From assembly GCA_951406725.2 (NCBI GenBank), contig OX597825.1, positions 49,476,001 to 49,540,000 of the forward strand: 64,000 nt of DNA. Reading direction: 5' to 3'. Shown here piece after piece: positions 30,793-63,553 of this stretch. Source of the DNA: Octopus vulgaris. Lineage: Eukaryota. Made by a program: the position numbers and the translations under genes. Under the pieces are notes generated by a model, which had not been told where the DNA came from, did no database searches, and saw nothing but the letters and a program-made list of their open reading frames with translations. Position 1 is the stretch's first letter, and each line of letters begins with the position of its first letter.

Positions 30793-31204
30793 ATTCTTCT
30801 ACTTCTTTACTTGTTTTAGTCATTTGATTGCGACCATGCTGGAACACCGCCTTTAGTCGAGCAAATTGACCCCGGAACTTATTCTTTATAAGCCTAGTAC
30901 TTATTCTATGTGTCTCTTTTGCCGAACCGCTAAATGACGGGGACATAAACACACCAGCATCGGTTGTAAAGCAATGCTAGGAAGAGAATCATGGACACAC
31001 AAACATACATACACACATATATATATAAATACATATATTCGATGGGGTTCTTTCAGTTTCCGTCTACCAAATCCACTCACAAGGCTTTGGGCGGCCCGAG
31101 GCTATGGTAGAAGACACTTGCCCAAGATGTCACGCAATAGGACTGAACCCAAAACCATGTGGTTGGTAAGCAAGCTACTTACCACACAGCCACTCCTGTG
31201 CCTA
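30793..31204 (-). mobile_element. Full-length tRNA-derived SINE (Octopus-type)
   Basis: Head aggcacaggagtggctgtgtggtaagtagcttg with A-box and B-box-like (ggttcagtcc) motifs, an internal microsatellite, and the tail catggtcgcaatcaaatgactaaaacaagtaaagaag. Same family as 33350/38618-39050, 50380 and 51860. Confidence 0.9.
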
Positions 31205-32780: not shown

Positions 32781-32807
32781 TTTAAATGACTCGATAATGT
32801 ATACCTT

Positions 32808-32945
32808 TCGTCGAGCAAATCGACCCCAGGACTTATTCTTTGTAAACCTAGTACTTATTTTACCGAAAAGCTAAGTTACTGGGATGTAAATACATCACCA
32901 TCGGTTGTCAAGGGATGATGGTGGGAGAAACACACATATATATAT
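32808..32945 (-). mobile_element. SINE 3' fragment
   Basis: gtcgagcaaatcgaccccaggacttattctttgtaaacctagtactt...catcggttgtcaag, same family as 30793. Confidence 0.8.
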
Positions 32946-32974
32946 ATATAATAAATAATAAATAATATACATGT

Positions 32975-33330
32975 ATATATGGGTACGGAACATCATCAAC
33001 GGTGCGAATGTCATGAAATACATAAACAAAATGGAAAACAGGACAAGTTACAACAGAGAAAGGACCCTTCATAAGTTTTCGGCTGTCTATCTACTCCTCA
33101 TTTCGAGCATTCAACGACAATATGAAACATCAATGACAGTTTCTCCCATGAATTCAAAACTAAAATTTTGGATTTATGGAGGGTCAAAGTTGGGAACAAG
33201 AAAATGACAGCGAAGATAAAAGGAAACTGAGTGAAAACAAAAATGGGGCGTTAGACGAGAACGAGAGGAAAATAGTGAATGCTGGGAAAAACATTTCCTT
33301 TTGGAGGAAAGTTAGAAGGCAGAGAAAAAA
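32975..33330 (-). repeat. Interspersed repeat family A, purine-rich, with a permuted hammerhead-like motif (copy at 41115-41600)
   Basis: Shares cggctgtctatctactcctcatttcgagcattca...aattcaaaa(c/a)taaaattttggattt...gttagac(g/c)agaacgagaggaaaatagtgaatg with 41230-41470. Confidence 0.85.
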
Positions 33331-33810
33331 TATGATTTATATTATCTTTAGGTGCAGGGGTGGCTGTGTGGTAAGTAGCTTGCTAACCTCACTGACTGAA
33401 GAGTGAATTTGCTTACCGTACTACGGTTTGGACGCGTTTTCTTCCTGGTAAGAGTTTTGCTGTGTTGTTAATATTACTTCGTACCATCTGGAACTTGTTG
33501 AATTTTACTTCTGAAAATTTGTTTTTGATCATTGTTGAACTGTTCTCTGGTTTTCCCGGGGAATAATTGGATAATTTGTTACTGTTGAACTGTTAGCCAT
33601 TGTGGCTTTTTTATCTACGTGACTGTATATAGTCTTGCCAGACTAATTTCGTGCCCCTTCCCCGAATGGGGGTGGGAATTGAAATTTTTGAACTGCTTTT
33701 TACCACTCATTGAACTGCTTTGGAAGAAAAACTTTTTATAGGTTTCCCAGTTTTGTAGGAAACCGATATTTGTAATTTTTGTGTTGTCTATTACTAATTT
33801 CAACAGAATA

Positions 33811-34999
33811 ATGTCTGTGGAGATTAATCACGAAAATAGTGCTCTTGAGGAGAGCAATGTTGATAACTGTAGTAAAAAATTTTCTGCGGTAGCCGCATTG
33901 GCTACCGAGAACATTGACATCAATGTCAATTGGCTCGTCGAGCTATTTAAAAGAATGAAAGAGGAGGGTGGTGATGTTAAAATATCACCCTCCGCCAATA
34001 TCGTGGAGACCGAGAAGCGGACCGTAGTGTTTAAAACTTTCTGTCCACAAAGCAGAAGGTTCAAACACTTTGAAAAGAATACTATCGAGAAATGCCTGTC
34101 CCCGATTTGGAAGGACATTGTGTACGTTGCCAGAGGACGGGCATATGGCACTGTGGAGGTCCGCTTCTCGGGGGAAGAGGTGGCCCGCGGGCATTCTGTG
34201 AATCCCTTAAAAACCAAGGAGGTGGTACTTCTGCCAAGCTATAGGGGACGCAGGACGTCCCGGGTCAGGATTGCAGAAGCACCGCCATAAGTAGATCCGG
34301 TAGAGGTAGTGGCCGCCCTGTTATATAAAAGGACGGACAAAATTAAAATACTACAGGTAACATGCTCTGCCCCTCAATATTGGCTTGGGTGAGACATTAA
34401 TATAATAATTCAAGGAACACCGGAGGACCTGCAGCTCCTTCCTGAGAGGGTGCTCGTGGGCGAGAATGTGGCCCTCAGGGTATAGGTCGAAGGCCGAAAG
34501 CCCACCTGTTACGCCTGCGGCAAAAAGGGCCACATTCGTGTTGACTGTCCAGACAGGCAAAAGAAACCGCAGACACCAGGCCCCTTAGATAATAAAAAAA
34601 ATCCCTACCCTTGCAAACTCACCTACCCCTACAAAAACAAAAAGTCCCACTGCTGCTGTTACGGTGCCAACCTCAAAACAAACTGACAAAAAAACCCAGC
34701 CCTTGCACTCACAAACCCTACATTATTAAAATCTCCCACCCCCTTAAAAACTGCGGCGCCTACTGAACAAAATATTGCTACCCCAGACGATACCGTGGAG
34801 GTATCAGAGGGGGGATTTACAACAGTTCGTAAAAGAATTCGTGCATCATCTCCGTCCACATCCCCTACAAAAAAAAATATACACAAAGACACACCATCCG
34901 GCGTATCGCGAACTTGCCGGACTATCTGAAGAAGGAGGAGAAAGAAGGGGCCCACAAATGTGTGGTGTGGTCGGCCCCAACCTCTCCAACGAAATGTAA
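33811..34999 (+). pseudogene. LINE ORF1 (gag-like, CCHC knuckle), disrupted
   Basis: ATG at 33811 with in-frame stops at 34288 and later. Knuckle PTCYACGKKGHIRVDC at 34501-34548, followed by a Pro/Thr-rich tail. Confidence 0.8.
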
Positions 35000-35020
35000 G
35001 TAGAACTTTTACTTTTTGTA

Positions 35021-38000
35021 ATGGCTTCTCTTAACCTTGGTTCTTTAAATGTGCGTGGTCTGAGTTCGAAGTGGAAGCAGGCTTGTTTCCTCGACGACCT
35101 CAGATCACATGATATACATGTGATGGTTGCTACAGAGACCAAGCTGGACAGGCTACAAACCTTGTCGCCTTTCCTGAATGGCTACGAGAAAATCATGTCT
35201 CCTGGCCAGACCGGAGGGCGAGGGGGTGTAGTGGTACTGATCCGTAAAGACTTGGCTCTGCAGACAAGTACAGTCTATGTGGACCCAGAAGGTGGGCTGG
35301 TCGTCCTTGATGTAACATACAGCAGTAAGGCCTTCAGGTTGATCGGACTCTATGCACCTTGTGCTAGAGGTTTCCAAACTGATTTTTATCGGCGCCTAGA
35401 GGGCTTTCTCGTGACGTCGAAGACTTTAGTGATATTAGGGGACTTTAATGCTATCGTTGACGTACACATCGATAGCGTTGGCTCGATCTATAGGAAAGTG
35501 AACTCACGTCTCGTGGATCTGCTTAAGCGGTTTCAGCTGGCAGATCGTTACAGACTTGACCATCCGAACGTCCCAGAGTGGACCTGGATGAGTGGTGACG
35601 GAAGGTTCAAGCCTTATCTAGACAGGATAGTGATAAGAACTAGAGATAAGTCTAGTTTTAGTCGTCCACAGCTCGTCCAGGTGCCCTATACTGATCATAG
35701 AATGGTCAAGTGTAGACTGGACATAGATAGCACACTTAAGATAGGAACCGGCTACTGGAAGCTGAACAAGTATATTTTGACTCGCGAGGCATACCGTAGC
35801 CGGATTAAGGAGTTAGTGCAGAGGGCGTTAACCGGAGCCGTGGTTAACAACCGGTGGTGGTTCGCCCTCAAAAGAGCCATTCGATTCGAGTCCATTAGAT
35901 TTAGTAAACAACTAAGACTAGATAGGGCTAGAATAGAAGGGCAACTAGTTAAGAACTTAGAGGAGGCGTTGAGGTTGGGCTCTGCATCTCACATTTTAGC
36001 GGCGAGAACGGCATTAGACCGTCACCTCAAAACCAAACATGAGGGATGTAGAGTCCGGGCTAAAGTACGAGCATTGGGCCGTGAGGGAATTAATGTTGCC
36101 GGATAGAAACAGAGCGTGGCAACGATGCCACAATTGGGTCTCTTGTTGATGAAAACGGATGCACGGTCAAGAAGCGGGACGAGATGTGTGACGCACTTCA
36201 CAAGCACTTCGCCGAGTTGTTCGGGAGGTGCGGGACGCTGGATCATGATGAGGCCCTTAGGGACTTCCTGTCTGGTGGCCTGCGTCTCACGATACGAGAG
36301 GCTGAGTGCTGTGAAGGGCCAATCACGGCCGAGGAAGTAATCGAGGTGTGCCCCGGGGAGAAGTCGCCGGGTCTCGATGGTTTGCCCTATGAATTTTATA
36401 AAAGTATGCCAGACTTGTTCGGGCACCTGCTGGCTAGCGTCTACGGCAACTGGCAGCAGAATGGGAGAATTCCCAAGTCTGCGAGCCGGGGGGTAGTGAC
36501 GCTGATCAGGAAGGACCCGAGCAAAGGGGACGAGATAGGGAACTTCAGGCCCATAACTCTGTTGAACACAGAGTTAAAGATTCTGGCCAAGGTGCTAGCA
36601 AAAAGGTTGGCGCGGGTCGTGGACAAACTTGTCGGGGAAGCGCAAACGTGCGCTATCCCTGGCAGAACGATCCACGATAATTTCCACCTTATACGCTACT
36701 CCTTAGAGAGGGTGGGGAAGCTTTCTGGCACAGGTGAGCACTGGTACATTTAGACCAGTCCAAAGCATTTGATAGGGTCGACCATCAGTACTTGGTGGCG
36801 GTCCTCGGAGAGGCTGGCCTAGGCCCGACCTTTCGAGATTGGATCGCTGCTTTGTATAGCCTCATCGAGTCTGTAGTCAAAGTGAACGGTTTCTTTTCGA
36901 AGCCGTTCAGGATCGAGCGTTCAGTTCGTCAAGGGTGTCCCCTGTCCTCGCTCCTATACGTATTGGCCCTTGACCCTTTGCTGCGGAAGTTGGAGGCACT
37001 AGGGTGCGCGCCGCATGATCTATGGTGTGGAAGAGGAGCTACGGCGTATGCGGATGACACCTCCACCATCGTGGCAGACGAAGGCCAGCTTCCAGTGGTG
37101 GAAGAGGCAATCAAAAGCTACGAGGCGGTGGCAGGAGCAAAGGTTAACAAGGACAAGTCGGTCGGTCGGTTTGCAACTCGGCACCTGGAGGGGCAAGCCG
37201 ATGCCGTCCAATGCCGTAGAGCGTTGGACGGAAGTTCCTCTTCAGCTGCTCGGAGTCTGGTTCGGGCCAGACCTCCAGATTGAGAAAAATTGGAGTGAGG
37301 TGGCCAACAAGGTGACCGCTCTAACCCAGACCTGGTCTGGGCGGGCGTTATCCCTGCTAGGGAAGGCGGAGGTGGTTGAGATGTTTATAGCATCAGTAAT
37401 CACCTACCGTCTGACCGTGATGACTTGCCCCGATTTGTGGCTGAACAAGTTGGAGAGAATCCTTTTCCGCTTTTTGTGGAAAGGAGGAAAGCCACTTGTA
37501 AAGCGCTCTGTCTGCTGCCAGAAACCGCTAAAGGGTGGGCTAGGGATGCCTTGGCTGAGGATGCAAAAACTCGCGTTAAGTTTAAGGCACCTCTGGCTTT
37601 ACCTGGATGGAGAGCAGGTGTGGTCACCGCACGTCCGGTTCTACCATCCCCAGTTAACATCCCTAACGGACATCGGTGCATGGATCAAGCGGAGACCTAA
37701 ACTGGTTGAATGGCATTTGGAATGCCGTCAGGCGCCCCAGCTACACTCTCGGGCGGGCAACAGGAGTTCCACCACGGATTTCAATAGCGGGTTAGCGGAG
37801 GTTAAGTCCGAAGGCGCCTTGGGGTAGACCCTGGGCTACGATGAAAATCAGTTGGTCAACCTGTTCCGGAGGACGTTCGGGCCGGGTATCTGGATACTTA
37901 CCAGAAATCCCTGGCCTGGCAGTGTTTCCGTGCGGCTTTCCTGTTCGCGACAAGCTGTCAAGGCTCGAAAGTGCCGGCGACATGCCCGCGATGTGAGCGG

Positions 38001-38385: not shown

Positions 38386-38757
38386 GTGTGACCGGATCAA
38401 AAAGTAAAGGTTCTATGCGGATGGCTGGGTGTCCGTCCTTCGATATGATCATTAAGTAATATTTTTAAACATTGTCTTCGTAAAATTCATTGGTTATAAT
38501 CTTATCCGTAATTTCATTCGAAAATTTTAACTGTGTTAAGCTACTTCACCCTTTATAATTGTCTGTCCTTGTTTGTCCCCTCTTTGTAAATGCCTAAATG
38601 GCAAATTATATGAAATAAAGTAGCTTGCTAACCAACCACATGGTTCTGGGTTCAGTCCCACTGCGTGGCATCTTGGGCAAGTGTCTTCTGCTATAGCCCT
38701 GGGCCGACCAATGCCTTGTGAGTGGATTTGGTAGACGGAAACTGAAAGAAGTCTGTC

Positions 38758-38839
<82 letters not shown>

Positions 38840-39667
38840 GTGTGTGTTTGTGTGTCTGTGTTTGTCCCCCTAGCATTGCTTGACAATCGGTGCTGGTGTG
38901 TTTACGTCCCCGTCACTTAGCGGTTCAGCAAAAAGAGACCGATAGAATAAGTACTGGGCTTACAAAGAATAAGTCCTGGGATCGATTTGCTCGACTAAAG
39001 GTGGTGCTCCAGCATGGCCGCAGTCAAATGACTGAACAAGTAAAAGAGTATGCAAGTATCTTCAAACAACAAAATGAATTACGCAAGGTTCTGCTGAGTA
39101 AGCATCTGAAAATATGTGTAGAAAGAATACCAAGATCATTCCCTTCTACACATGCCCAAATTATGAGACAAGGTACCGGAAGGCAATGGAATTACATTTT
39201 ATCAAAATAATTCTAACGTATGCTAAACGTACACAAAAATATAAAAAATACATACATGAGGAGTCCTCATTAAAATGTTTGCGCTATTGTTAATAAAATA
39301 ACTGGAAAACTTCACTTAAGCCACACAAAACATACACACACTCTTTCTCACAGGTGCGATTAAGCACACAATCATTTAATAATCTTCCGAAATGTTTCTC
39401 TACATCTGGATAACATCACAACCGACACACACGAAAATCAATAAACCAATAACTAAAGAAAATTGACCTCTTGAACTATCATAAATTTAAACACTCCCCG
39501 AAAAAGACACCTTTCGACAGATACGTAGCATAGAACTGATTAAAAAATGCAATGCAATTTCAGCCATCCAGAAAGGACCCATTTCTTTCTTTCCTCTTCT
39601 TTTTCTCCATCTGACAAAGCCTGTAAAATCCTTCACTCATACTTATATACACATATACACCCACGCT

Positions 39668-41003: not shown

Positions 41004-41084
<81 letters not shown>

Positions 41085-41114
41085 ATATATATGTGTGTGT
41101 GTATACAAGCATAT

Positions 41115-41600
41115 ATTGGTACAGGACGTCACCAACTTTGTAAACAACATAATGTACTGAAACAAATGATTTTAATACGCAAACAAGGGAAAGATCGAAA
41201 ACAAGATAAATAACACGGAGGACGACACTTCATCAGTTGTCGGCTGTCTATCTACTCCTCATTTCGAGCATTCAGCGAGAATATGAAATTTCAATGACAG
41301 ATACTCCCATAAATTCAAAAATAAAATTTTGGATTTTTGGAGAGTCAAAGATGGAAACATAAACAGGACAGAAGAGAAATACAAGGAAACTGGACGAAAA
41401 CGAAGATGAAGTATCGTTAGACCAGAACGAGAGGAAAATAGTGAATGTTAGGAGAAATATTCTCTTTGAAAAACAAAAAAGATAGAAGAGGGAGATAGAA
41501 GACGTCCAATCCTTAGAACGTCGTGCAGGAAAAGAAAGAAGTTCATGGGAGGAAAAGAAAGATGGGCGATGGTCACTTGTGAGCAACGAGGGAGAGAGAA
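41115..41600 (-). repeat. Interspersed repeat family A, second copy
   Basis: Homologous to 32975-33330 and adjacent to a (TA)n(TG)n tract. Confidence 0.85.
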
Positions 41601-42599
41601 AAAGAGAAAGAGGGGAGTGAGAGATAGAAAACGTTGAAGGGGAGAAAAAGTAAATTAGAAAAGAATGGGGAAGAAAACAGCATAGAGTAGAATGTCATCA
41701 TATTTATTTGTGTGTGAGTGGAGTGTTTGTGTGTGTGTGTGTGCCTGTGTGTGTGACTGTTTGTGTGTGTATGTATGTGTGCCTGTGTGTTGCTGCGTAC
41801 CTTAGTGGTTAGAGAATTACATTCACGATCGTAATATTGTAATGACAACTCGGCATCGTCTCCTCAGCGACCTATATATACACCACAGTATCAAAGAAAG
41901 CTGAGTCAAATGCTAGGACTCGATAAGGATTTTTGATCGATTTTATAGATTTCGAGACGGTATGAAAGAGACACAAACTTATCGAGAGCTAAACTATTCT
42001 TATATAGATCCCCTGACATTCCTGGAATTTAGATTTTAATCTAAAGAGTGGGACAATCTCAGTTTACTGTAGTTTCTCGGTGCATTATATCAGATATCCG
42101 TGATAGTACCGTATGTGTGTATAATATGTCAGTGTCCTTTTTAAAATATTCTCTTTCCGTCCTAATATTGATATGCATTATCTTTATAATTCCCATATAT
42201 CTCTCTTCCCTTTTCTCTCTCTCTCCATATGCGTATATGTATGTATGTATATATATGTATATATGTACGTGTGTGCAGGTGCGTGCGTGTGTGTGTGTAT
42301 GTATGTATATATATATGTATAAATATATATGTATATATATGTGTGTGTGTGTGTGTATGCATGCATGTATGTGCCTCTTATGTATTTCCTCATTTAAATT
42401 CTTCATCTGAAGAAGGGGCTGTTTTTTTTAGCAAATGCAAAGTTCCATCTTTGGAATGTGGATAATAAAAACCATATCAAATTTTAAACCCCAAGAAAAT
42501 TCTTGCATGGTTTTAGTGTTCCACTTGTATTTCCAATATGCGAATCAGTTGGTTGATTTCTATAACTTTTATCGTTCTAACTTACTTCTGTTGTTTACA

Positions 42600-45679: not shown

Positions 45680-46518
45680 AATGCTAACCACTAGTACAAT
45701 TTGTACTAGTGGTTAACATTCGTAACAAAAGTTAGAAGACGTAAATATCTCTCCGGCGATTCTATTGACGAGCAACAAATGGTTAATTAATCAATTAATT
45801 GATTTATTTGATTATTAATGGTGAAACCCATGGGTATAATTGTGAAACTCATGGGTATATTTTTATTCATTCAAGTGTCCAGCTTACTTACATGTAACGT
45901 GCTATAAGAATGGTTTTTCGTGGTTGTGATTTGACTGCTCTCTCTAGCTTGCAAGAAGTCCACATGGTTGTCTTCTCTCCGTATATAAATTCTTATACAC
46001 TATTGTATTATAAAGATATTTATGTCTTCTATCTTTTATTACGCACGCTAACCACTGACATAAAATTATTAATTTAATATTTTTACCCTGTATTTATATA
46101 GTTATATACTTAAATTCTTCGGACAGATAATACACGGTTGAATTTATTCACTGCTGTACTACTCTGACTCGGCACTTTCGTTGATGGCGTACGATTTGAA
46201 TTCTTGAAGTATAAAGATGGAACTAAATGCACATGTGTTTACTTTATGCTTTCGGTAGTTTCATAATTATACATTCTTCAGCGACGCTACTGACGAGCCA
46301 TAGACGCTTAATTAATGAATTAATTGACTAATTAATTGATTTATTTGATTATTAATGGGGAAACTCATTGGTGTAGATTTAACTGATATTTTTATTCCTT
46401 GAAGTGTCCATCTCGCTTACAAGCAAAGTGCTCTTTTCGTTGTTTGGGATTTGACTGCCTTTCTAGCATGTAAGAAGTCCACGTGGTGCTCTTCTCTCCG
46501 TGTATAAACTGTCATACC

Positions 46519-46523
<5 letters not shown>
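45680..46523 (+). mobile_element. PLE pseudo-LTR/retrozyme-like unit: 5' hairpin plus two diverged direct repeats (45745-46003 and 46272-46523), each with a hammerhead-like motif
   Basis: Shared attgatttatttgattattaatgg(t/g)gaaac, aagtgtcca, gatttgactgc, aagaagtccac and cttctctccgt. Consensus motif cta-CTGACGA-gccat...atgg-GAAAC-ccatgg-GTA-tag. (TA)n on both sides. Confidence 0.7.
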
Positions 46524-46568
<45 letters not shown>

Positions 46569-46606: not shown

Positions 46607-47512
46607 TGCATACATACATACATATATGTACGTACCTACATCTACATGTATATATACATGCATATATAAATATATATACGTGAGTACAGGACACCACAAA
46701 TAGACGTAGAACTCAACGAGAAACGAAAACGTAAAAACAAACATGGAAACGGACTTTTTTTTAACAACGAAAAAACAGAGTACAAGACAAACAACACAAG
46801 GAAAATTCCCCTTCATCAGCTGTCCCTAGTTCAACTCCATGCGTGTTTCGAAGGTAAGGACAGAACACGACTCGTCTAACTAGCCCTTCCTGCGAAAGAA
46901 TTAAATAAAATTCCTTTGCAGAGGGGTAAAAACAAAGAAAGAAAAAAGTGTGACAAAAACAGGACGTAAAAACAATACAAATAAAAATACAAGTAAAAGA
47001 AACAAGTACAAAATAAAAATACAAATACAAAAAAATACAGTACAAGAAATAAAAACAAATATGGAAACAAACAATGAGGGCCTTTTTTAGCCTAGACGAG
47101 GAAAAATTCAAGAGCGCAGGAAAAAAGCGTGTTCACTTGTAGGAGGCCGCCAGCGAAAGGAAGTTGGTCGACCCGGCTGTGAGAGAGATGAGGAGGAGTG
47201 AGAGAGAGAAAGATAGAGAGGAAAGGAAACCAGAAAAGGTGAAAAATAAGAAGGAGAGAGACAGGCAAAGAGGAAGACAGATAGGAAGGGAGGGAAGATC
47301 AAGCAAAGGGTTATAGAGTTTCGCGTCATAATTATATATAAAAAGTTACTTGGAGAACAGAAAGGAAACGAAACGACGCGAGGGCGCTCCGTCATGCAAT
47401 TTAATAAATAAAATACCTGCTTACATACATACATATATGTACGTACCTACATCTACATGTATATATACATGCATATATAAATATGTATACGTGAGTACAG
47501 GACACAACAAAT
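46607..47512 (-). mobile_element. Repeat family B with ~90-bp direct terminal repeats and a permuted hammerhead-like motif
   Basis: tacatacatatatgtacgtacctacatctacatgtatatatacatgcatatataaatat(a/g)tatacgtgagtacaggacac occurs at ~46611-46700 and ~47422-47512. The interior is non-coding and purine-rich. Confidence 0.75.
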
Positions 47513-49452
47513 CTAGAGTAGAAGTCATCTGCGTATTTGTGTATTGCCATTTTATTATTGCATGTGAATAGTTCAATATTTCGATATCATTTGTAATTAT
47601 ATTTATTTTATTTATAATATCTTAATTTCATAAATAATTTGAATATATAAGTTTATAATATTAACCGAACTGATCTCCCATTTATCACATTACAGTTTCT
47701 GGATGGATACAATTACCAGTTTCCAGAGATTGTATCCCTCATTATAAATATATAGTCTGGCACAGAAATACCAATTCTCCAGCTACAGATATCTAATGGA
47801 TTAAATATCATTTAGAACAAACTCCTTCGACTGTTTTAATAGGTATCTAGTGCAGACATCAACATTTATAAATCGATAAATCGACATTTATAAACCCGGA
47901 TACAATATTTCATTTAATGTTATCAAATATCCTTACACTATCTGTTAATTAATGTGTCATATTTCTCCCCCTTCTGTGTGATATGGTTGACATATGCTGG
48001 CTCTCTTTAATAGACTAGCATTATGACTGTAATAGAGAGCTTAGTATTTTCTTAGTGTACACTTGTAAGCCACGCAGAATTATTGAATTGAAGGTTATGG
48101 CAAATAGCCTCTTTTTCATGCCAGGCTAAACGGCAATAACAACGTTATATAACAAGGAATGTTATTTTCATTAAGACAATGCATAGTTAATAGAGCTACA
48201 TTTTACAGTGTAAGTTTCCTGTGGCATCATTGCTCTCTTTCGTTTCACTCTAAACGCTCAAAGTAAAAACAGCCATTTCTAGCCCCTTTTTGGTAACTTC
48301 ACACATTCTAATCTAAAGATTACACGTGTGGGTCATTAGCAAAATATATGTTTCTTGTTGTGTTTCAAACACAACTTTAATTCATGTATAGGCATGTATA
48401 ACATGTATCGAGCTCAGCTGGAACAATATATTAATATAGCTTGAACGTGTGTATTACAGTATTAAGAATGAGAACATATATCCCTTTGGAACTCTCTTAA
48501 GTATCGATATCAAGTGTGTTAACGTAGGAGGAAAGCCACACAACATATTGACTACTCGATTTGCCTTTCCATGTTTGTTAGTACACCCACATTGCATTCA
48601 GTTACTAAAATATTTAATTTCTGTAATTTTGTTATCACCAATGTTTATCAAGTGTTTACAATTACAGAATAAATTATTTTAAAACTATTCCAGCAATTAA
48701 GGAGTTACTTATGACAGTTAAACATAATGCACTAAATGCTTTCTTTTTTATCTCATAACGTACTAAATTATTCAGGATATGAAGCTAATTTACTATCCTA
48801 TCAATTAGTTATCCTGTACATTACTCGATACAGTTAAAATAGGAAATGGAAAAGCTATGAATTACTGAGAATTTAAATTTAACTTGATTAGATATCTTCA
48901 ATATATCTTAGAAGGTGTTGAATTATCAGTATTCAAGAATTGCTACTTTGGATATCGCTAAGTTGTATAATTGAAATTGGAGTTTGTAGCAGCAACTTCA
49001 AAGAAGATAAAAGAAAATGAAGAAAATTTCTGAATGATAAGCACATTTCATGTTGACAAAAATGTCAAATTGCAATGTAAAATAGAAAAGCACCAAAATT
49101 CTCAAATATTAAAAGTGAAGAATGTTTTTTATAGTCATATAAGTAATGACAAACCTTCGAACATTTAACATATAAACGGGCTTTAAAAGTTCTCTCACTG
49201 TATTCGTATGACATTAACACGCATGAAACTTTAAGTACTATGCAGGAAATTAAACATGTATAACAGAATCATTTATAATGTGTATGATTTCGTTGCGATA
49301 TCCGTAATTACGGAGAGATAGGTGCAGTAACACACATCTTGCAATTTGAAACGTAACATCAAATGATAAACTTACGTTGATGAAATATTAGATGCCCTAC
49401 TTCAAACATATTAGGGAATATACAGGACGACAGATAAATACATTCCTCTTAA

Positions 49453-49960: not shown

Positions 49961-50379
49961 CTTTTTTTGCCTCTTCTGCAACAATTTTTCAATATATGTC
50001 TTTGGTGGCGGCATGAGTCTCTACTAACTCTATCGGTCGAGGTCCATTATTGAGAAGTCAATATCAGAATTTCTCTAATGGAATCTATTACCTTACAGTT
50101 TATTTTAACATAGCATCCACGCTAACGTAGGGATACATATTACCTTTCGCTATTAAAATTGCTCCTGTCGCATTTTGTTTTGTCATTTTGGCTTAAAACA
50201 AAATCAATAACACTTCATGCGCCTACATATAGGTTTACAAAGGCACACACGCATACACTCGCACATGCATATGTGGGTTTGTGTGTATGTGTGTATATGT
50301 GCATATAAGTGTGAAAACTAATGCTGAGACACCCTATGGATATATTTTCAAATATATAATTATCTATATGTACGTGGCT

Positions 50380-50590
50380 TTGTGTCTATTTGTGTCCCCA
50401 TTGCCGCTTCACAACTGATGTTGGTGAGAATACATCCCCTGTATATAGCGGTTCGGCAACAGAGAGACCAATATAATAAGTACCAGGTTTTAAAACACAA
50501 GTGCTGGGGTCGATTCGTTCGAGTAATTTTTTTAAGGTAACACTCCAGGTTGGCCGCAGTCTAATGACTGAAACAAGTAAAAGATATAAA
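50380..50590 (+). mobile_element. SINE 3' half
   Basis: tagcggttcggcaa...aataagtaccagg...ggccgcagtctaatgactgaaacaagtaaaaga. Confidence 0.8.
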
Positions 50591-51859
50591 GATGTATATT
50601 ACCAAGCTAAGGGTGAAATTGGGTGACATTTTACTACTGATTGTATCAGGCAATGTAAATATGAGAAGATTCACTTTTCCAATATTTTCTCTACGTTTTG
50701 AATATAGTTGTGGCAATCATTGTTTGCTATCATCCCCGCACATCACTTTCTGCTTGAAATACTATAAACCAGCTCTAATTACAATTCTTTGTTTCCTAGC
50801 AACCCCAAGAAAAGATGGCGAAATCGCTCTTGTGCGGACTGGATCCTGGGTGAATAGAAAAACTTTTATAGTTTTCTTTCCATAATACTCATTAATTATT
50901 TTAATCATTTTTCATAATAATAGTAATAAAACATTCCATTTCTATTTTTTCCATAATTATTGTGTATGTTGTTTGTCACTATGGTAATAGAACAGTGCAA
51001 CGTCAATCTGACAACCGTGTTTTGTTATACTGAAACAAAACAAAAATTGCACTATATATTGTATGCAGCTGTGTTGCAGGACATAGCAAAGAAATAAAAT
51101 AAAATGGAGATTGGAAAAATGAACTCAAAAATATGAGTGAGATATGGAAAAATATTTACCCATGTATCAAAGTGAAATTAAGTGAATCAATTTATCTCTT
51201 CAGGAAATTATAATAAATTGCTGAAAATGAATTAAAAAAGAAATGAAGCATTATATGTAACTAGAGTTGAATAGGTTTCTACATTGACAAATTGTAGCAT
51301 GGTGAGAAAAATATGCTTTAATAAAGTAGCAGAGACGGAAAAGTACACATACACGTACACGCATACGCACACATAAATATTCTTCACATATTTTCACGTG
51401 TACACTAACCCGCACACATATGCATGAATGCACGCACATATACGCATTGCTGTTATTGGGTATATGTGTGTAACTCTTTGCATGTATAGATTTTAAGCAA
51501 ATGTCATAAGTGAGTTCTGATTATAGACACAAAATTAAGGGTTTTGTGAAATTTTGAAATTTTTTACTACACAAGTGCTTCTCTCGGTGGACTAAGAACA
51601 ATCTTTGATGAGAATATGAAAGGTTGTCTGACGCCTGCTTGCAAAAAATAAGTGATGCACTTCTTATATTTAAAATTGAACCCATGTTATATGACATCTA
51701 ACAGAATACCCGTAAAGTTACCTTGCATTTCAACTCATCGTACACATAGTTATCTTTTATACACACACACATTCTCTCTCTCCCATTCACATATACAAAC
51801 ACTTGCGCCTACACACACACACACATGCACACATGACTATATAGTTTATCTATATACAT

Positions 51860-51994
51860 AGGCGCAGACGTGGCTGTTTGGTAAGAACCTTGTTACCTAA
51901 CCATACGTTTCAGAGTACAGTCTCTCTACGTGCCATCTTTTCTACTATAGCCTTGGGCGGATTAAAGCGTGGTGAGTGGATTTAGTTGTCGAAA

Positions 51995-52000
<6 letters not shown>
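51860..52000 (+). mobile_element. SINE 5' half
   Basis: aggcgcagacgtggctgtttggtaag...tctactatagccttggg...gtgagtggattt. Confidence 0.75.
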
Positions 52001-52031
<31 letters not shown>

Positions 52032-52059
52032 TATATAGAGAGAGAGAGAGAGAGAGACT

Positions 52060-59419: not shown

Positions 59420-60240
59420 ATCTAAATAAGAACATTTATAAACCTTCTAGAAAGCCCAACGATAGACTTAGATATATTAATATGGGTTCAGCCATCCCCC
59501 ATAGTGTTTTAAAATTTAGTTAAAAACATTAGCAAAAGAATTTATAGTATATCTTCCGATAGGGACATTTTTAATAGCGTTGCCCCAGTATATAATAAGG
59601 CTCTACAAGATAGTGAATTTAGCGAGGAAATAACCTATACACCTGCCACCAGTCCAATAATAAAGAAAAGGGAACATGGGAATAGGAAAAATGTTTGGTT
59701 CACACCGCCTACTCACCCGAAGTACAGGCAAGTATTTCTTGGCATTGATTGATAGACATTTACCAGTCAACCATAATTACAGAAAGCTCTTCAATAGACA
59801 TAACTTAAAAATCAATTTCAGCTCAACTACTAATTTTAAAAATATAATCGCACACATCACACAAAAACCACAATATCAAACCAGTTGTTTATGCAGGGAT
59901 AAATATTTGTGCCCGCTAAACGGAGCGTGTTTGTCCCAGACCATCATGTATGAAGCCACCGCGGACTCTATATCTACTAAGGACACGGTTTCGACGAAGA
60001 AATACGTGGGCCTTACAGAGGGTAATTTCAAGGCCAGGTACAATAATCACAGCTTGAGTTTCGGAAAAAAGTAAAACGACCAAATTATCTGGTCCTTAGA
60101 AGATAAAGGTGGCAGTTACAATATCCATTGGAAGATCTTATCCAAGTAAGAGTCTATACCTCGTAGAATTCATGCTATAATTCCTGCCAAAGTAGGTCCT
60201 ACCGTATATTAAAATAAATTTTCTTGAAATTTTAAAGTGC
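59420..60240 (+). mobile_element. Degenerate Naiad-type PLE 3' part (thumb + GIY-YIG)
   Basis: YKPSRKPND..RYIN, WFTPP, KLFNRHNLKINFS, CLCRDKYLCPLNGACL, IMYEA...KYVGLTEGNFKARYNNH. Confidence 0.85.
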
Positions 60241-60709: not shown

Positions 60710-60913
60710 TTATAGTTAAAAAAAACAAACAAATTTCCACACGAAAACACGTGATTTCTGCCCCTGGCATGTAGCTTCAACCGTGTTTTCTGACGTGAAT
60801 TTGCTACCCGGGTATCGGTTAACCGAATTGTCCATACTAGGATAATTCATTCACCTACTTAAATACTCTTATACAGTCTCCTTGAGATCCTGCTATCTTA
60901 ACCGATAACGCAA

Positions 60914-63553
60914 ATGGAGTTGTTCGACATTAACGCATCCCTTAAGGACATACCAATACCACCGAAAGAAACCTTCCTTAAGGAAATTGTGAACAAAACT
61001 AATGCATTTATCATCCGCATCAGATGGCTCGCCTTCTTCCATGATAATGAGGACATAAAACGGAACAGTAACGACGTCTCTTTTGAATATAAAAAACTAT
61101 TTAGGTCGAGAGGAACCCATCCACCTAATCCCACACTGAAGAAATTTGAAAATGATCTGTGGGACATCGTAAGGAACAATAAATTTCGTAAATCACCCCT
61201 TAGGAATAAACACCTCAAATACCTCGATAAAGTCGCCAGAGATATAAACAGATTAGACGCTATCCTGGTCCAATCGGATAAAACCGGGGACATATATAAG
61301 CTTGCAAAGGATCATTATTTAGAAATGCTCAAAAAAGAAATACATAAGAATTACAGGACAACAAATAGGAATACACTCAGACAGGCCAACTTAGAAATTA
61401 AGAAAATCATGGAAACGTATGGATTACAAATGAAAACACAACCGCTGAAACCCAGACAACCGAGATTCATCGTTAAGGACCATAAACAGAACTTTCATAC
61501 CAACCCGGCATTAAGGCTCATATGCCAATCTAGTTCCGACATCGGTACCCTTAGTAAGTACATTTTAGATAAATACATACCTATATTAATCAATAAGTTA
61601 AAACTCAGCTTATGGTGTAACTCCACTCAAGTCGTAGAGTGGTTTACTTCTATTACTAATAAGGACAACACAAAATTTATACAATTCGATATATCTAGTT
61701 TCTACCCTTCGATCAACCCTAGTGTACTCAATAAGGCCCTATGGCACGCACATAATAAGAGAGGCCTCTCCAGGGAGGAAATTAATGTGATATTAGCAGC
61801 TAGAAATTCTTTCATACAGTTCGATAATAAGTTGTGGGTCCGCAGAGATACCCCCAACGCATTCGATGTGCTAATGGGAAGCACAGACAGCGCCCAGATA
61901 GCCGATTTGGTCGGAATTTATATTCTCTATGAATTGGCCGACCAATTCCCAGACCTCTGTGGCGGTCTGTATCGAGACGATTGTCTACTTTACCTCCAGA
62001 ATGCTCCGAACAATAGAATACAGAAGATTAAGAAGAGATTAGCTAAATTTTTTAGGAGAATGGACTTAAGCATAGTTTTTGACGATGAATTATCTAAAGC
62101 CAACTTCTTAGACGTTACCCTAAATCTGCAGAATAATTCATACTTCCATTATAATAAACCTTCTACTAATCTTAAATATATCAGCATTTTCAGTAACCAT
62201 GCCAAAACTATTACCGATAATTTAGTTAAAAATATTTCTTTAAGACTGTCAAAAGTATCTGCTAATGGCGACATCTTTAACCAGAAAGCGGAATTTTATA
62301 ACGCCGCCTTGTCAAAAGCCGGTTATAGAGATAATGTATCATACAACGACCTGGCCCATTCTAAACCAATATATGCTTCTCAGGATAAGAAAACTAATAA
62401 CAATAGAAATAGTGAGAATAATGATTTCAGCTCTAACAACGTCAGCACCAATGTACTTAAGAAAAATAATTTACGGACAAGGGGAGGCAATCGACAACCA
62501 ACCCCAATTTTCCAGCACAGAAATATTCCCTTTAATGTAACTAGTAACGCTTTCAGCAATTCTAAGTCTACAAAAAATTATATCTGGTTTGTTATACCTT
62601 TCGGAAAACAAATCAAGTCAAACCTTCCTTTACAGTTCCGTGAAGCTGTAGCTAGGAACTTTCCCAGGAATTCTAGGTATCACTCTACTATCAATTCGCA
62701 TAAGGTAAGGATTGCATTCTCTAACACTAGAAATCTTTCGCAAATTATTGCCTCCGATAATAACAAGCTGCTCAACAAGGATTCTTCACCCGGGTGTTAC
62801 GACACTATTCTTATCAATTCCAACCAAACATACAATAATAATAATAGAAATAGTATTGATAATAGCAACATTCGTAACAGCGTTGGTATTAACAATGGTA
62901 GTATTAATAATAATACTAGCTGGATTAATAACAGTGGTAGTGTTGATGGTAACAACGACAGCATTTCTAATAACAGTGGTAGTGTTGATGATAACAACGA
63001 CAGCATTTCTATAGTCAGGGATATTGCCGGCGATAGTACAATTAATAATAATAACAATAATAGAACTAGTATAGTGGTCAATGCTAGCAATAATATTAAC
63101 AGCAATCATAACAATAAAAACTCCGTCTTAGTCTCGGAGGTAAACCGTTACAGATTAAAGTTCTTGTCCAGTAATTCCAAAATTAGAAATTCTATTTACC
63201 AGTGTAAAATTTCTTCCGGTACCGGTGTCTTCTTCTATATTGGGGCGACTACTTCTAAATTGTCCCAGAGAATTTCCAATCATTATTCAACTTTCCGAGA
63301 TAAGAGAAAACAATAGAGTACAGGACTAAGTAAATTAGTTTGGCGTCTTAAGGACAGCAATATAACTTTCAAGCTGGATTGGTCCATATTGTCCGTATCC
63401 TTTCCTTTTGATAAGGGCAGGAAATATTGTGGCGTCTGTAATTCCGAGCTCTTCTATATTCTTTTCGCCAAATTCCCCTTGGTAAACACAATAATAGAAA
63501 AATCCTATAAGTGCATGCACTGGCAGAAGCACACTTTCCACTCATATGAATGA
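60914..63553 (+). CDS. Penelope-like element (Naiad-type) RT + GIY-YIG polyprotein; 800-aa ORF, a single in-frame TAG (63314-63316), then 78 more codons
   Basis: RT-region motifs KDIPIP, IRWLAFF, SDKTG, KDHKQNF, FDISSFYPSI, FDVLMGSTDSAQIADLVG, GLYRDD, NFLDVTL. Endonuclease IYQC..YIGAT..RISNH, and after the TAG: TGLSKLVWRLK..W.I..CGVCNSE..VN..CMH. Confidence 0.92.

Follow-up and report, generated by a model that had tools for sequence, protein, structure and literature searches.

Octopus repeats carrying decayed copies of a hammerhead motif with a non-circularly permuted block order and a predicted split stem II

Results and Discussion

Repeats and other elements in the window

The stretch of DNA analysed here (hereafter the window) comprises 64,000 nucleotides of Octopus vulgaris (assembly GCA_951406725.2, contig OX597825.1, positions 49,476,001 to 49,540,000), and it is AT-rich animal DNA with many microsatellites. 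The two copies of a hammerhead-like motif which an earlier reading of the letters alone (hereafter the sequence-only reading) had placed at 33064 and 41226 both exist, on the minus strand, and are 81% identical over 279 nt. The second one belongs to a near full-length, non-autonomous repeat of ~615 bp (41085..41700, minus strand), delimited by blastn with real full-length copies (L337 and L454) and by the discrete 5' start found in other copies, and terminated by a (TA)n tract at 41005-41057; this repeat probably represents the pLTR/3' UTR part of a Penelope-like element (PLE), mobilised alone. The first copy lies in a repeat of the same family (family A), which is 5'-truncated when compared with full-length copies (32965..33330, minus strand). 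In general, the family A element is ~600 bp long and non-coding, ends in (TA)n and also occurs as tandem or inverted pairs, and a DNA search of the 2.8-Gb genome returned 2626 candidates, of which 40 were scored.

A second family (family B), with the same layout and different stems, is present as a young repeat (46655..47415, minus strand; copies 95-97% identical) and as a second, tandem piece upstream of it, which is a 3'-end fragment (47404-47527). The putative ribozyme of the former (46808..46926, minus strand, core at 46819) keeps its core and 24/24 scored pairs intact, with a predicted cut after GUU (46864/46863), and is the best assay candidate within the window.

Several other elements surround these repeats. 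A frameshifted, GC-rich LINE (33742-37827, plus strand), with an ORF1-like frame, an AP endonuclease and a reverse transcriptase (RT), is located a short distance upstream of the family A copy which is truncated. On the same strand, an 804-aa frame (60902-63316) corresponds to a Penelope-like RT with the start of a C-terminal GIY-YIG domain, and a separate GIY-YIG fragment is found at 59664-60074; the motif described below is attached to neither. Members of an abundant and unrelated SINE-like family occupy 30800-31180, 32803-32980, 38618-39050, 50340-50584 and 51858-52037. Finally, within the repeat pair at 45783-46542, a palindrome bears CTGACGA (46290) on one strand and CTGAAGA (46281) on the other, and is possibly a minimal or dimeric hammerhead. 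In other loci (L248, L250 and L511) we saw repeats with the core in the ordinary order, an extra base after CUGANGA and some inverted pairs, which are likely canonical type I hammerheads of PLEs.

The family A motif in the window

The ribozyme of the near full-length repeat would extend over 41225..41346 (minus strand, as are all its parts). From 5' to 3', a first upstream strand (U1, 41341..41346) is predicted to pair with the bases directly after CUGAUGA (41229-41225), forming helix X; a hairpin with a U-rich loop (H, 41307..41340) links U1, with zero unpaired bases on either side, to a second upstream strand (U2, 41302..41306), which would form stem II with the five bases preceding GAAA (41270-41266). 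There follow, at 41288..41300, the 5' strand of an additional helix (P4, pairing with 41248-41244) and a G/A-rich internal loop, which extend stem III and have moderate support. The three conserved blocks come next: block S (41277..41287), with the 3' strand of stem III, U16.1, A17 (41282) and the 3' strand of stem I, and with the predicted cut at 41282/41281; block G (41258..41270), with the 3' strand of stem II, GAAA (41265-41262) and the 5' strand of stem III; and block C (41225..41242), with the 5' strand of stem I, CUGAUGA (41236-41230) and the 3' strand of helix X. The structure reaches ~65 nt farther upstream than the intervals proposed before (33064-33121 and 41226-41283), and the triplet lies at their 5' edge.

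In this copy the core is intact, as had been reported for CTGATGA, the third pair of stem I is a C-C mismatch, and helix X and hairpin H have a single mismatch each; the ribozyme is probably impaired. The other copy (33063..33185, minus strand; the cut would be at 33121/33120) does read CTTATGA (33075-33069), a change of G5 to U at 33073, and its stems I and II contain a mismatch each. It is predicted to be a dead ribozyme, since G5 mutants abolish cleavage in the work of Eckert et al. 2023 (PMC10085705). Both family A copies named by the sequence-only reading are fossils.

Block order and cleavage triplet

The unusual order of the core, with GAAA upstream of CUGAUGA, was correctly noted for both copies, and so was the pairing of CGACAA, which directly precedes CUGAUGA, with TTGTCG in the 5' segment; this pairing is stem I, and it also passed the covariation check proposed for it. 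The further claim of a type II order (GAAA-NUH-CUGAUGA) did not survive: a type II (GSC) descriptor was passed by 0/30 family A loci, against 13/30 for a descriptor with the order S-G-C (SGC descriptor), when the loci were chosen by similarity. When they were chosen by the G and C blocks alone, the SGC descriptor was passed by 8/30, and the loci that fail it are decayed or truncated. The GTA after 'tgagga', which had been taken as the triplet, could form at most 1-2 pairs of a stem III, is not followed by a stem I strand, and is absent from families B and N. The actual triplet is within CTCAT-A, directly preceding TTGTCG: ATGAG (the five bases after GAA) pairs with the upstream CTCAT, which is followed by an A and then by TTGTCG, so that these elements correspond to stem III, position 17 and stem I, the order becomes cut site, GAAA, CUGAUGA, and the family A cut is predicted after AUA. 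Judged from the sequence, the family A order is S-G-C, a non-circular permutation, which can be drawn as neither type I, type II nor type III. A type I reading starting from CUGAUGA was rejected, given that no GAAA lies downstream in any family A copy examined.

Rfam searches found no hammerhead, neither in the window (among 119 matches at E up to 1) nor in four loci scored with Rfam models (0 matches at gathering score), as is expected for a permuted order. When 464 kb around the window were scanned with the SGC descriptor, the strict setting gave 1 match versus 0, 0 and 0 in three shuffles, and the loose setting gave 2 matches versus 2, 1 and 0; with counts so near the shuffles, the local scan alone proves little.

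Copies and lineages throughout the genome

A pattern made from the GAAA and CUGAUGA blocks of family A only matched the genome 1033 times, versus 0 for its reversed control, which places the block arrangement of this family far beyond chance. Two further patterns of G and C blocks gave 2615 matches versus 0 and 3574 versus 63, the last set including a few per cent of chance matches or type I repeats. Since the three patterns do not overlap, there are ~7,000 copies genome-wide with both blocks exact. Using the linker sequence, 237 distinct instances were sorted into 12 subfamilies of four lineages (A, B, C and N), with 50 left unassigned. Additional subfamilies with the permuted motif, lying between A and C and showing new compensatory changes in stems I, II and P4, were seen at L517:2140-2270 (plus strand) and L174.

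The majority sequences of 11/12 subfamilies passed the SGC descriptor (C2 failed through one stem I mismatch), and 11 majorities were scored for the features that follow, B4 (one copy, truncated upstream) being excluded. All 11 have the hammerhead core CUGANGA, GAAA and UH (H being any base but G), with A, U or C and never G at position 17, and U16.1-A15.1 and G10.1-C11.1 are invariant, the latter being G-C under either of the stem II models discussed below. Taking the block order, the conserved core and the copy numbers together with the covariation described below, we regard the S-G-C fold as very probable.

Individual copies are in a different state of decay in each family. When copies are picked by the 3' end alone, the core is retained, and no helix has more than one broken pair, in 12 of the 38 family A copies which span the motif (70 in total) and in 35 of the 46 spanning family B copies (90 in total); an intact family A copy occurs in L443. 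Decay in family A is nearly even (identity of 0.947 in the core, 0.921 in the stems and 0.914 in the rest), which points to selection on the master elements, with most copies not under selection.

A predicted split stem II and four-way junction

The strands on both sides of the core find partners upstream in the four lineages. U2 and the bases before GAAA pair as GAGCA/TGCTC in A, GAAGG/CCTTC in B and C, and GACAC/GTGTC in N, and U1 and the bases after CUGAUGA pair as ACCCT/AGGGT, CCCCT/AGGGG, CCCCG/CGGGG and TCCCA/TGGAG, with hairpin H joining U1 to U2 without any unpaired base. Modelled on these pairings, stem II is predicted to be split, each of the core strands that flank it pairing with an upstream strand of its own, in a perfect four-way junction.

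In the majorities of A, B1, C1 and N (in which the U1/U2 anchors of A and N were initially picked by eye), 94/96 positions of helices X, H, II, III and I are Watson-Crick, and, of the 24 permutations of partners among these four, only the true one reaches this value (full swaps average 50, with a maximum of 57). Over all 11 majorities, 256/264 positions of the five helices are paired and 0/5000 permutations match, these controls, as well as the shuffles, being run on lineages which are related by descent. In an unedited MAFFT alignment of 15 real B and C copies, 98.3% of 359 cells are paired and 10/24 pairs show two-sided changes, matched by 0/500 shuffles, while slid controls reach 42-47%. 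With family A added (19 copies), X, H and the split stem II have 96.6% of 266 cells paired and 8/14 pairs with two-sided changes (2/500 shuffles match); family A was counted in these helices only, given that MAFFT moved its block S by two columns, and lineage N, which MAFFT misaligned, was excluded from the tool counts. Stems I and III, which flank the cut, covary both in the copies and in the majorities.

The sixth helix, P4, pairs the G-to-C linker with a strand located upstream of block S. When compared with shuffles, it is clear in B1, B3 and C2 (3/11 majorities), borderline in A and C1 and weak in the other six, and it shows compensatory changes among the B subfamilies. The G/A-rich loop between P4 and stem III, judged by eye, is presumably kink-turn-like in B and N, and a kink-turn or a loop E in A and C. 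The U-rich loop of hairpin H (TTATTT-like; e.g. 41320-41330 in the window) is kept in the four lineages despite the changes in its stem, and could make a tertiary or protein contact. Nested folding, which cannot represent pseudoknots, does not favour the model (modest z-scores of -1.5 to -2.4).

Stem II can also be drawn directly, by pairing the bases that follow CUGAUGA with those that precede GAAA, and this is the basis of the main rival of the split-core model, in which the active form would be a plain SGC hammerhead (one extra base after A9, then G-C, G-U and G-U/G-C) and U1-H-U2 would act as a cage which holds the strands apart, keeping the ribozyme off until displaced or absent. The first two pairs of this direct stem are possible in 11/11 majorities, and four pairs in 10/11; the stem is 100% paired in the 15 B and C copies; and the invariant GG and UC, found after the core and before GAAA respectively, are compatible with it too. 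Moreover, an off state would let templates through uncut, which would fit the family B copies that run through the site (see below), and the hammerhead of one PLE did need protein for cleavage (PMC11167929). Nevertheless, the direct stem has only two Watson-Crick and two G-U pairs (in lineage N, one Watson-Crick pair, with a break at the third pair) and no two-sided change, whereas U2 gives 5/5 Watson-Crick pairs, three covarying positions and a G opposite C11.1, and a junction with zero unpaired bases exceeds what a mere blocker needs. We consider the caged switch unlikely and hold the full split-core model to be fairly probable.

Possible traces of cleavage in the ends of the copies

If the RNA of these elements were cut, some copies should start at the predicted site, and this is what is seen in family B. 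Among the 90 copies picked by a 3'-end pattern, 21 of the 71 at risk start at -1 to +23 of the predicted cut, versus 2 of 50 in the adjoining upstream stretch of 25 nt (Fisher p 3e-4) and 4 of 75 on the downstream side; the best 25-nt window in the whole scan begins at -1, and 0/500 constant-hazard simulations match it. Such a sharp edge at the scissile bond is the trace expected of a cleaved template, and it constitutes indirect evidence for cleavage, read from the copies themselves. Given that 50/90 copies run through the predicted site uncut, cleavage must be incomplete. A further cluster of family B starts, at -226 to -202, is likely due to subfamily divergence. In family A (69/70 copies mapped) there is a weaker and non-significant trend: 10/57 copies start in the same region versus 6/47 upstream (p 0.59; p 0.015 versus downstream), 317/500 simulations match, and 12/69 starts fall at -3 to +10, a window which was chosen afterwards. 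Copies that start at the cut do not have a clearly higher rate of tandem arrangement (3/7 versus 6/23, and 3/6 versus 12/24). Family B is also present as contigs in four runs guessed to be RNA, a type of data that cannot show ends, strand or level. Inverted junctions inside the ribozyme, via its own complementary strands, were seen in L315, L324, L325, L359 and L231, the one in L315 being exactly at the predicted cut.

An RNA derived from a hammerhead that no longer cuts, and that serves the PLE protein as a signal for binding or packaging, could also account for part of these data, the 5' ends then being generated by RT stalling or by a second transcription start. In its favour, the anole PLE inserts in vitro without hammerhead cleavage and with no reads ending at the site (PMC11167929), the truncation test of family A is non-significant, and the RNA contigs have no common ends (a weak point, given the nature of contigs). 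This reading does not explain why the letters of the core and the absence of G at position 17 are kept across four lineages with changed stems; furthermore, at -1, the position at which the pile-up of family B ends, the RT has no helix left ahead of it on which to stall, and full-length copies already have a discrete start ~480 nt upstream. We regard it as rather improbable, and the catalytic activity of intact copies as probable.

It would be very surprising if the strands had instead to assemble between two RNAs or two tandem copies, as in minimal PLE hammerheads: a second piece does lie within 3 kb in 12/24 and 6/23 loci, and dimer cleavage by PLE hammerheads is in print (according to the title of a reference), but stem III here has 5 bp plus P4 and is not palindromic, and the linkers (~3 nt and 13-17 nt) fit the published layout of SGC hammerheads acting in cis (PMC10085705). 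The type II, circularly permuted hammerhead cutting after GTA can be practically dismissed: family A does have GAAA, a GTA and CUGAUGA in succession, but the covariation of stems I and III is with the upstream block, in addition to the failure of the descriptor and of the triplet described above.

The candidate parent element

In 19/50 RT loci (including 6/20 of those with RTs only 40-54% identical to the query) and in 5/9 loci of a separate set, a PLE RT is followed on its own strand by lineage N. The RT that precedes it is decayed and Naiad-type, the N-terminal endonuclease of these elements being taken from the published Naiad consensus, and lineage N matches by eye, at near identity, the 3' ends of the Naiad_Obim and Naiad_Ovul consensuses (PMC8557442). 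Families A, B and C were found downstream of an RT on the same strand in 0/50 RT loci, in a search limited to relatives of one RT, and we found no autonomous partner or linked ORF for them. We infer a Naiad parentage for the three from the shared fold, the (TA)n targets and the layout; the relation to Penelope suggested by the sequence-only reading is accepted.

A Neptune-like PLE of 753 aa was considered as parent and rejected (0/30 loci carry the motif), and the family B copy that lies beside one such element is a separate (TA)n insertion. This Neptune-like PLE (L126, L161-L163) is very young, with a 753-aa frame and many near-identical copies (19322 candidates), and the hammerhead in its 3' UTR is type I-like, with a core that is a variant one and a stem III that is palindromic. 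Repeats of A, B and N (e.g. L337, L342 and L454) have a discrete 5' start followed by a splice-donor-like AAGTAAG, which resembles the description of PLE pLTR promoters with an intron.

Other Naiads were compared by eye, in the consensus ends available from publications. The S-G-C order with long stems I and III is found in Naiad_Esco (squid), in Naiad_Smim and in the spider record which precedes it, as well as, with a long spacer after block S, in Naiad-1, -2 and -3_Dst (ostracod), the stem II layout being different or ambiguous in all of these. Naiad_Parc has the ordinary block order, and in the consensus ends of Naiad_Omin, Naiad_Adux and Naiad-1_Skow no such motif was seen.

Comparison with known hammerheads

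Hammerheads with the SGC order have previously been published only from metatranscriptomes, e.g. HRIMA-1 and the SGC variants of Eckert et al. 2023 (PMC10085705); natural ones cleave in vitro, and compensatory rescue was shown. That study assumed an uninterrupted block C and reports no SGC hammerhead in the genomes of known organisms; its supplement contains none of the five animal or Naiad names that we sought. The octopus motif shares with this type the S-G-C order, all core nucleotides, the covariation in stems I and III, the linker of ~3 nt between stems I and II and the two pseudoknots in the core. It differs in that the 5' strand of stem II would come from an upstream strand, through a four-way junction, in that P4 extends stem III, and in existing as thousands of genomic repeat copies. 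For the interaction helix of type-SGC (distal stems I and II), we saw no consistent counterpart by eye, the G-to-C linker pairing upstream as P4.

The similarity with the type I hammerheads of PLEs and retrozymes (Cervera and de la Pena 2014, as cited in PMC11167929 and bioRxiv 10.64898/2026.07.22.740005) lies in the location in the pLTR/3' end, in the tandem and inverted copies and in the existence of non-autonomous derivatives (PMC11167929; bioRxiv 10.64898/2026.07.22.740005). Those hammerheads have the order C-G-S and often a minimal palindromic stem III, whereas the motif described here is non-circular, ~120 nt long and has six helices. For the anole PLE, protein was needed for hammerhead cleavage, and the hammerhead was dispensable for insertion in vitro (PMC11167929), results which temper our functional claims.

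As in the Naiads described by Craig et al. 2021 (PMC8557442), there is insertion in (TA)n, there are partial tandems and inversions, and the elements are decayed in cephalopods. According to that report, Naiads are without a canonical hammerhead, and eight 'half cores' are flagged, including Naiad_Ovul ('HHR_half_core'); here, in contrast, the half cores resolve into a complete permuted hammerhead. Among publications found by combining hammerhead, non-circular permutation and SGC, only PMC10085705 has all three, and searches for hammerheads with Naiad, cephalopod or four-way junction returned no publication on such a fold, in a literature search from which subscription journals are largely missing.

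Proposed fold and mechanism

Taken as a whole, we favour, with fair though limited confidence, the view that the family A copies are decayed members of a repeat-borne hammerhead with a non-circular order and a split stem II, which likely cuts the RNA of the element after AUA. In this model the RNA would fold, from 5' to 3', as U1, hairpin H, U2, 5' strand of P4, internal loop, block S, a short linker, block G, loop, 3' strand of P4 and block C. U2 would pair with the bases before GAAA, thereby providing G10.1, and the bases after CUGAUGA would pair with U1, so that X, H, stem II and the arm of the core that contains A9 and G12 would meet with zero unpaired bases. The core arm presumably stacks on stem II, and X on H, which would retain the usual active site despite the location of A9 and G10.1 on different strands. 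The repeats that carry the motif, ~150 nt away from their 3' end, are short, non-autonomous and inserted in (TA)n, and they likely correspond to pieces of the pLTR/3' UTR of Naiad-type PLEs. Cleavage is likely partial or slow: cut templates would give rise to copies starting at the site, while uncut templates would be copied whole, passing the ribozyme on.

A broader proposition is that animal Naiads and their parasites use an active hammerhead of a new topology, non-circularly permuted, with the core split between strands at A9/G10.1 through a perfect four-way junction, and cutting the RNA of the element in vivo, that S-G-C is the missing ribozyme of many Naiads (in cephalopods, spiders and ostracods) and that the genomic 5' ends are a fossil record of cleavage; to all of this jointly we would give an even chance.

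Significance

If the fold proposed here is correct, this would be the first non-circularly permuted ribozyme found in print from the genome of a known organism (in a search from which subscription journals are largely missing), and it would be available in thousands of copies, as opposed to anonymous environmental RNA. The split stem II, if true, breaks the stated assumption that the CUGANGA block is uninterruptible, and implies that descriptor searches miss whole classes of ribozymes. The claim that Naiads lack hammerheads, as given in PMC8557442, would have to be revised. Finally, the in vivo role of PLE hammerheads becomes directly testable through the accumulation of copy starts at the predicted cut.
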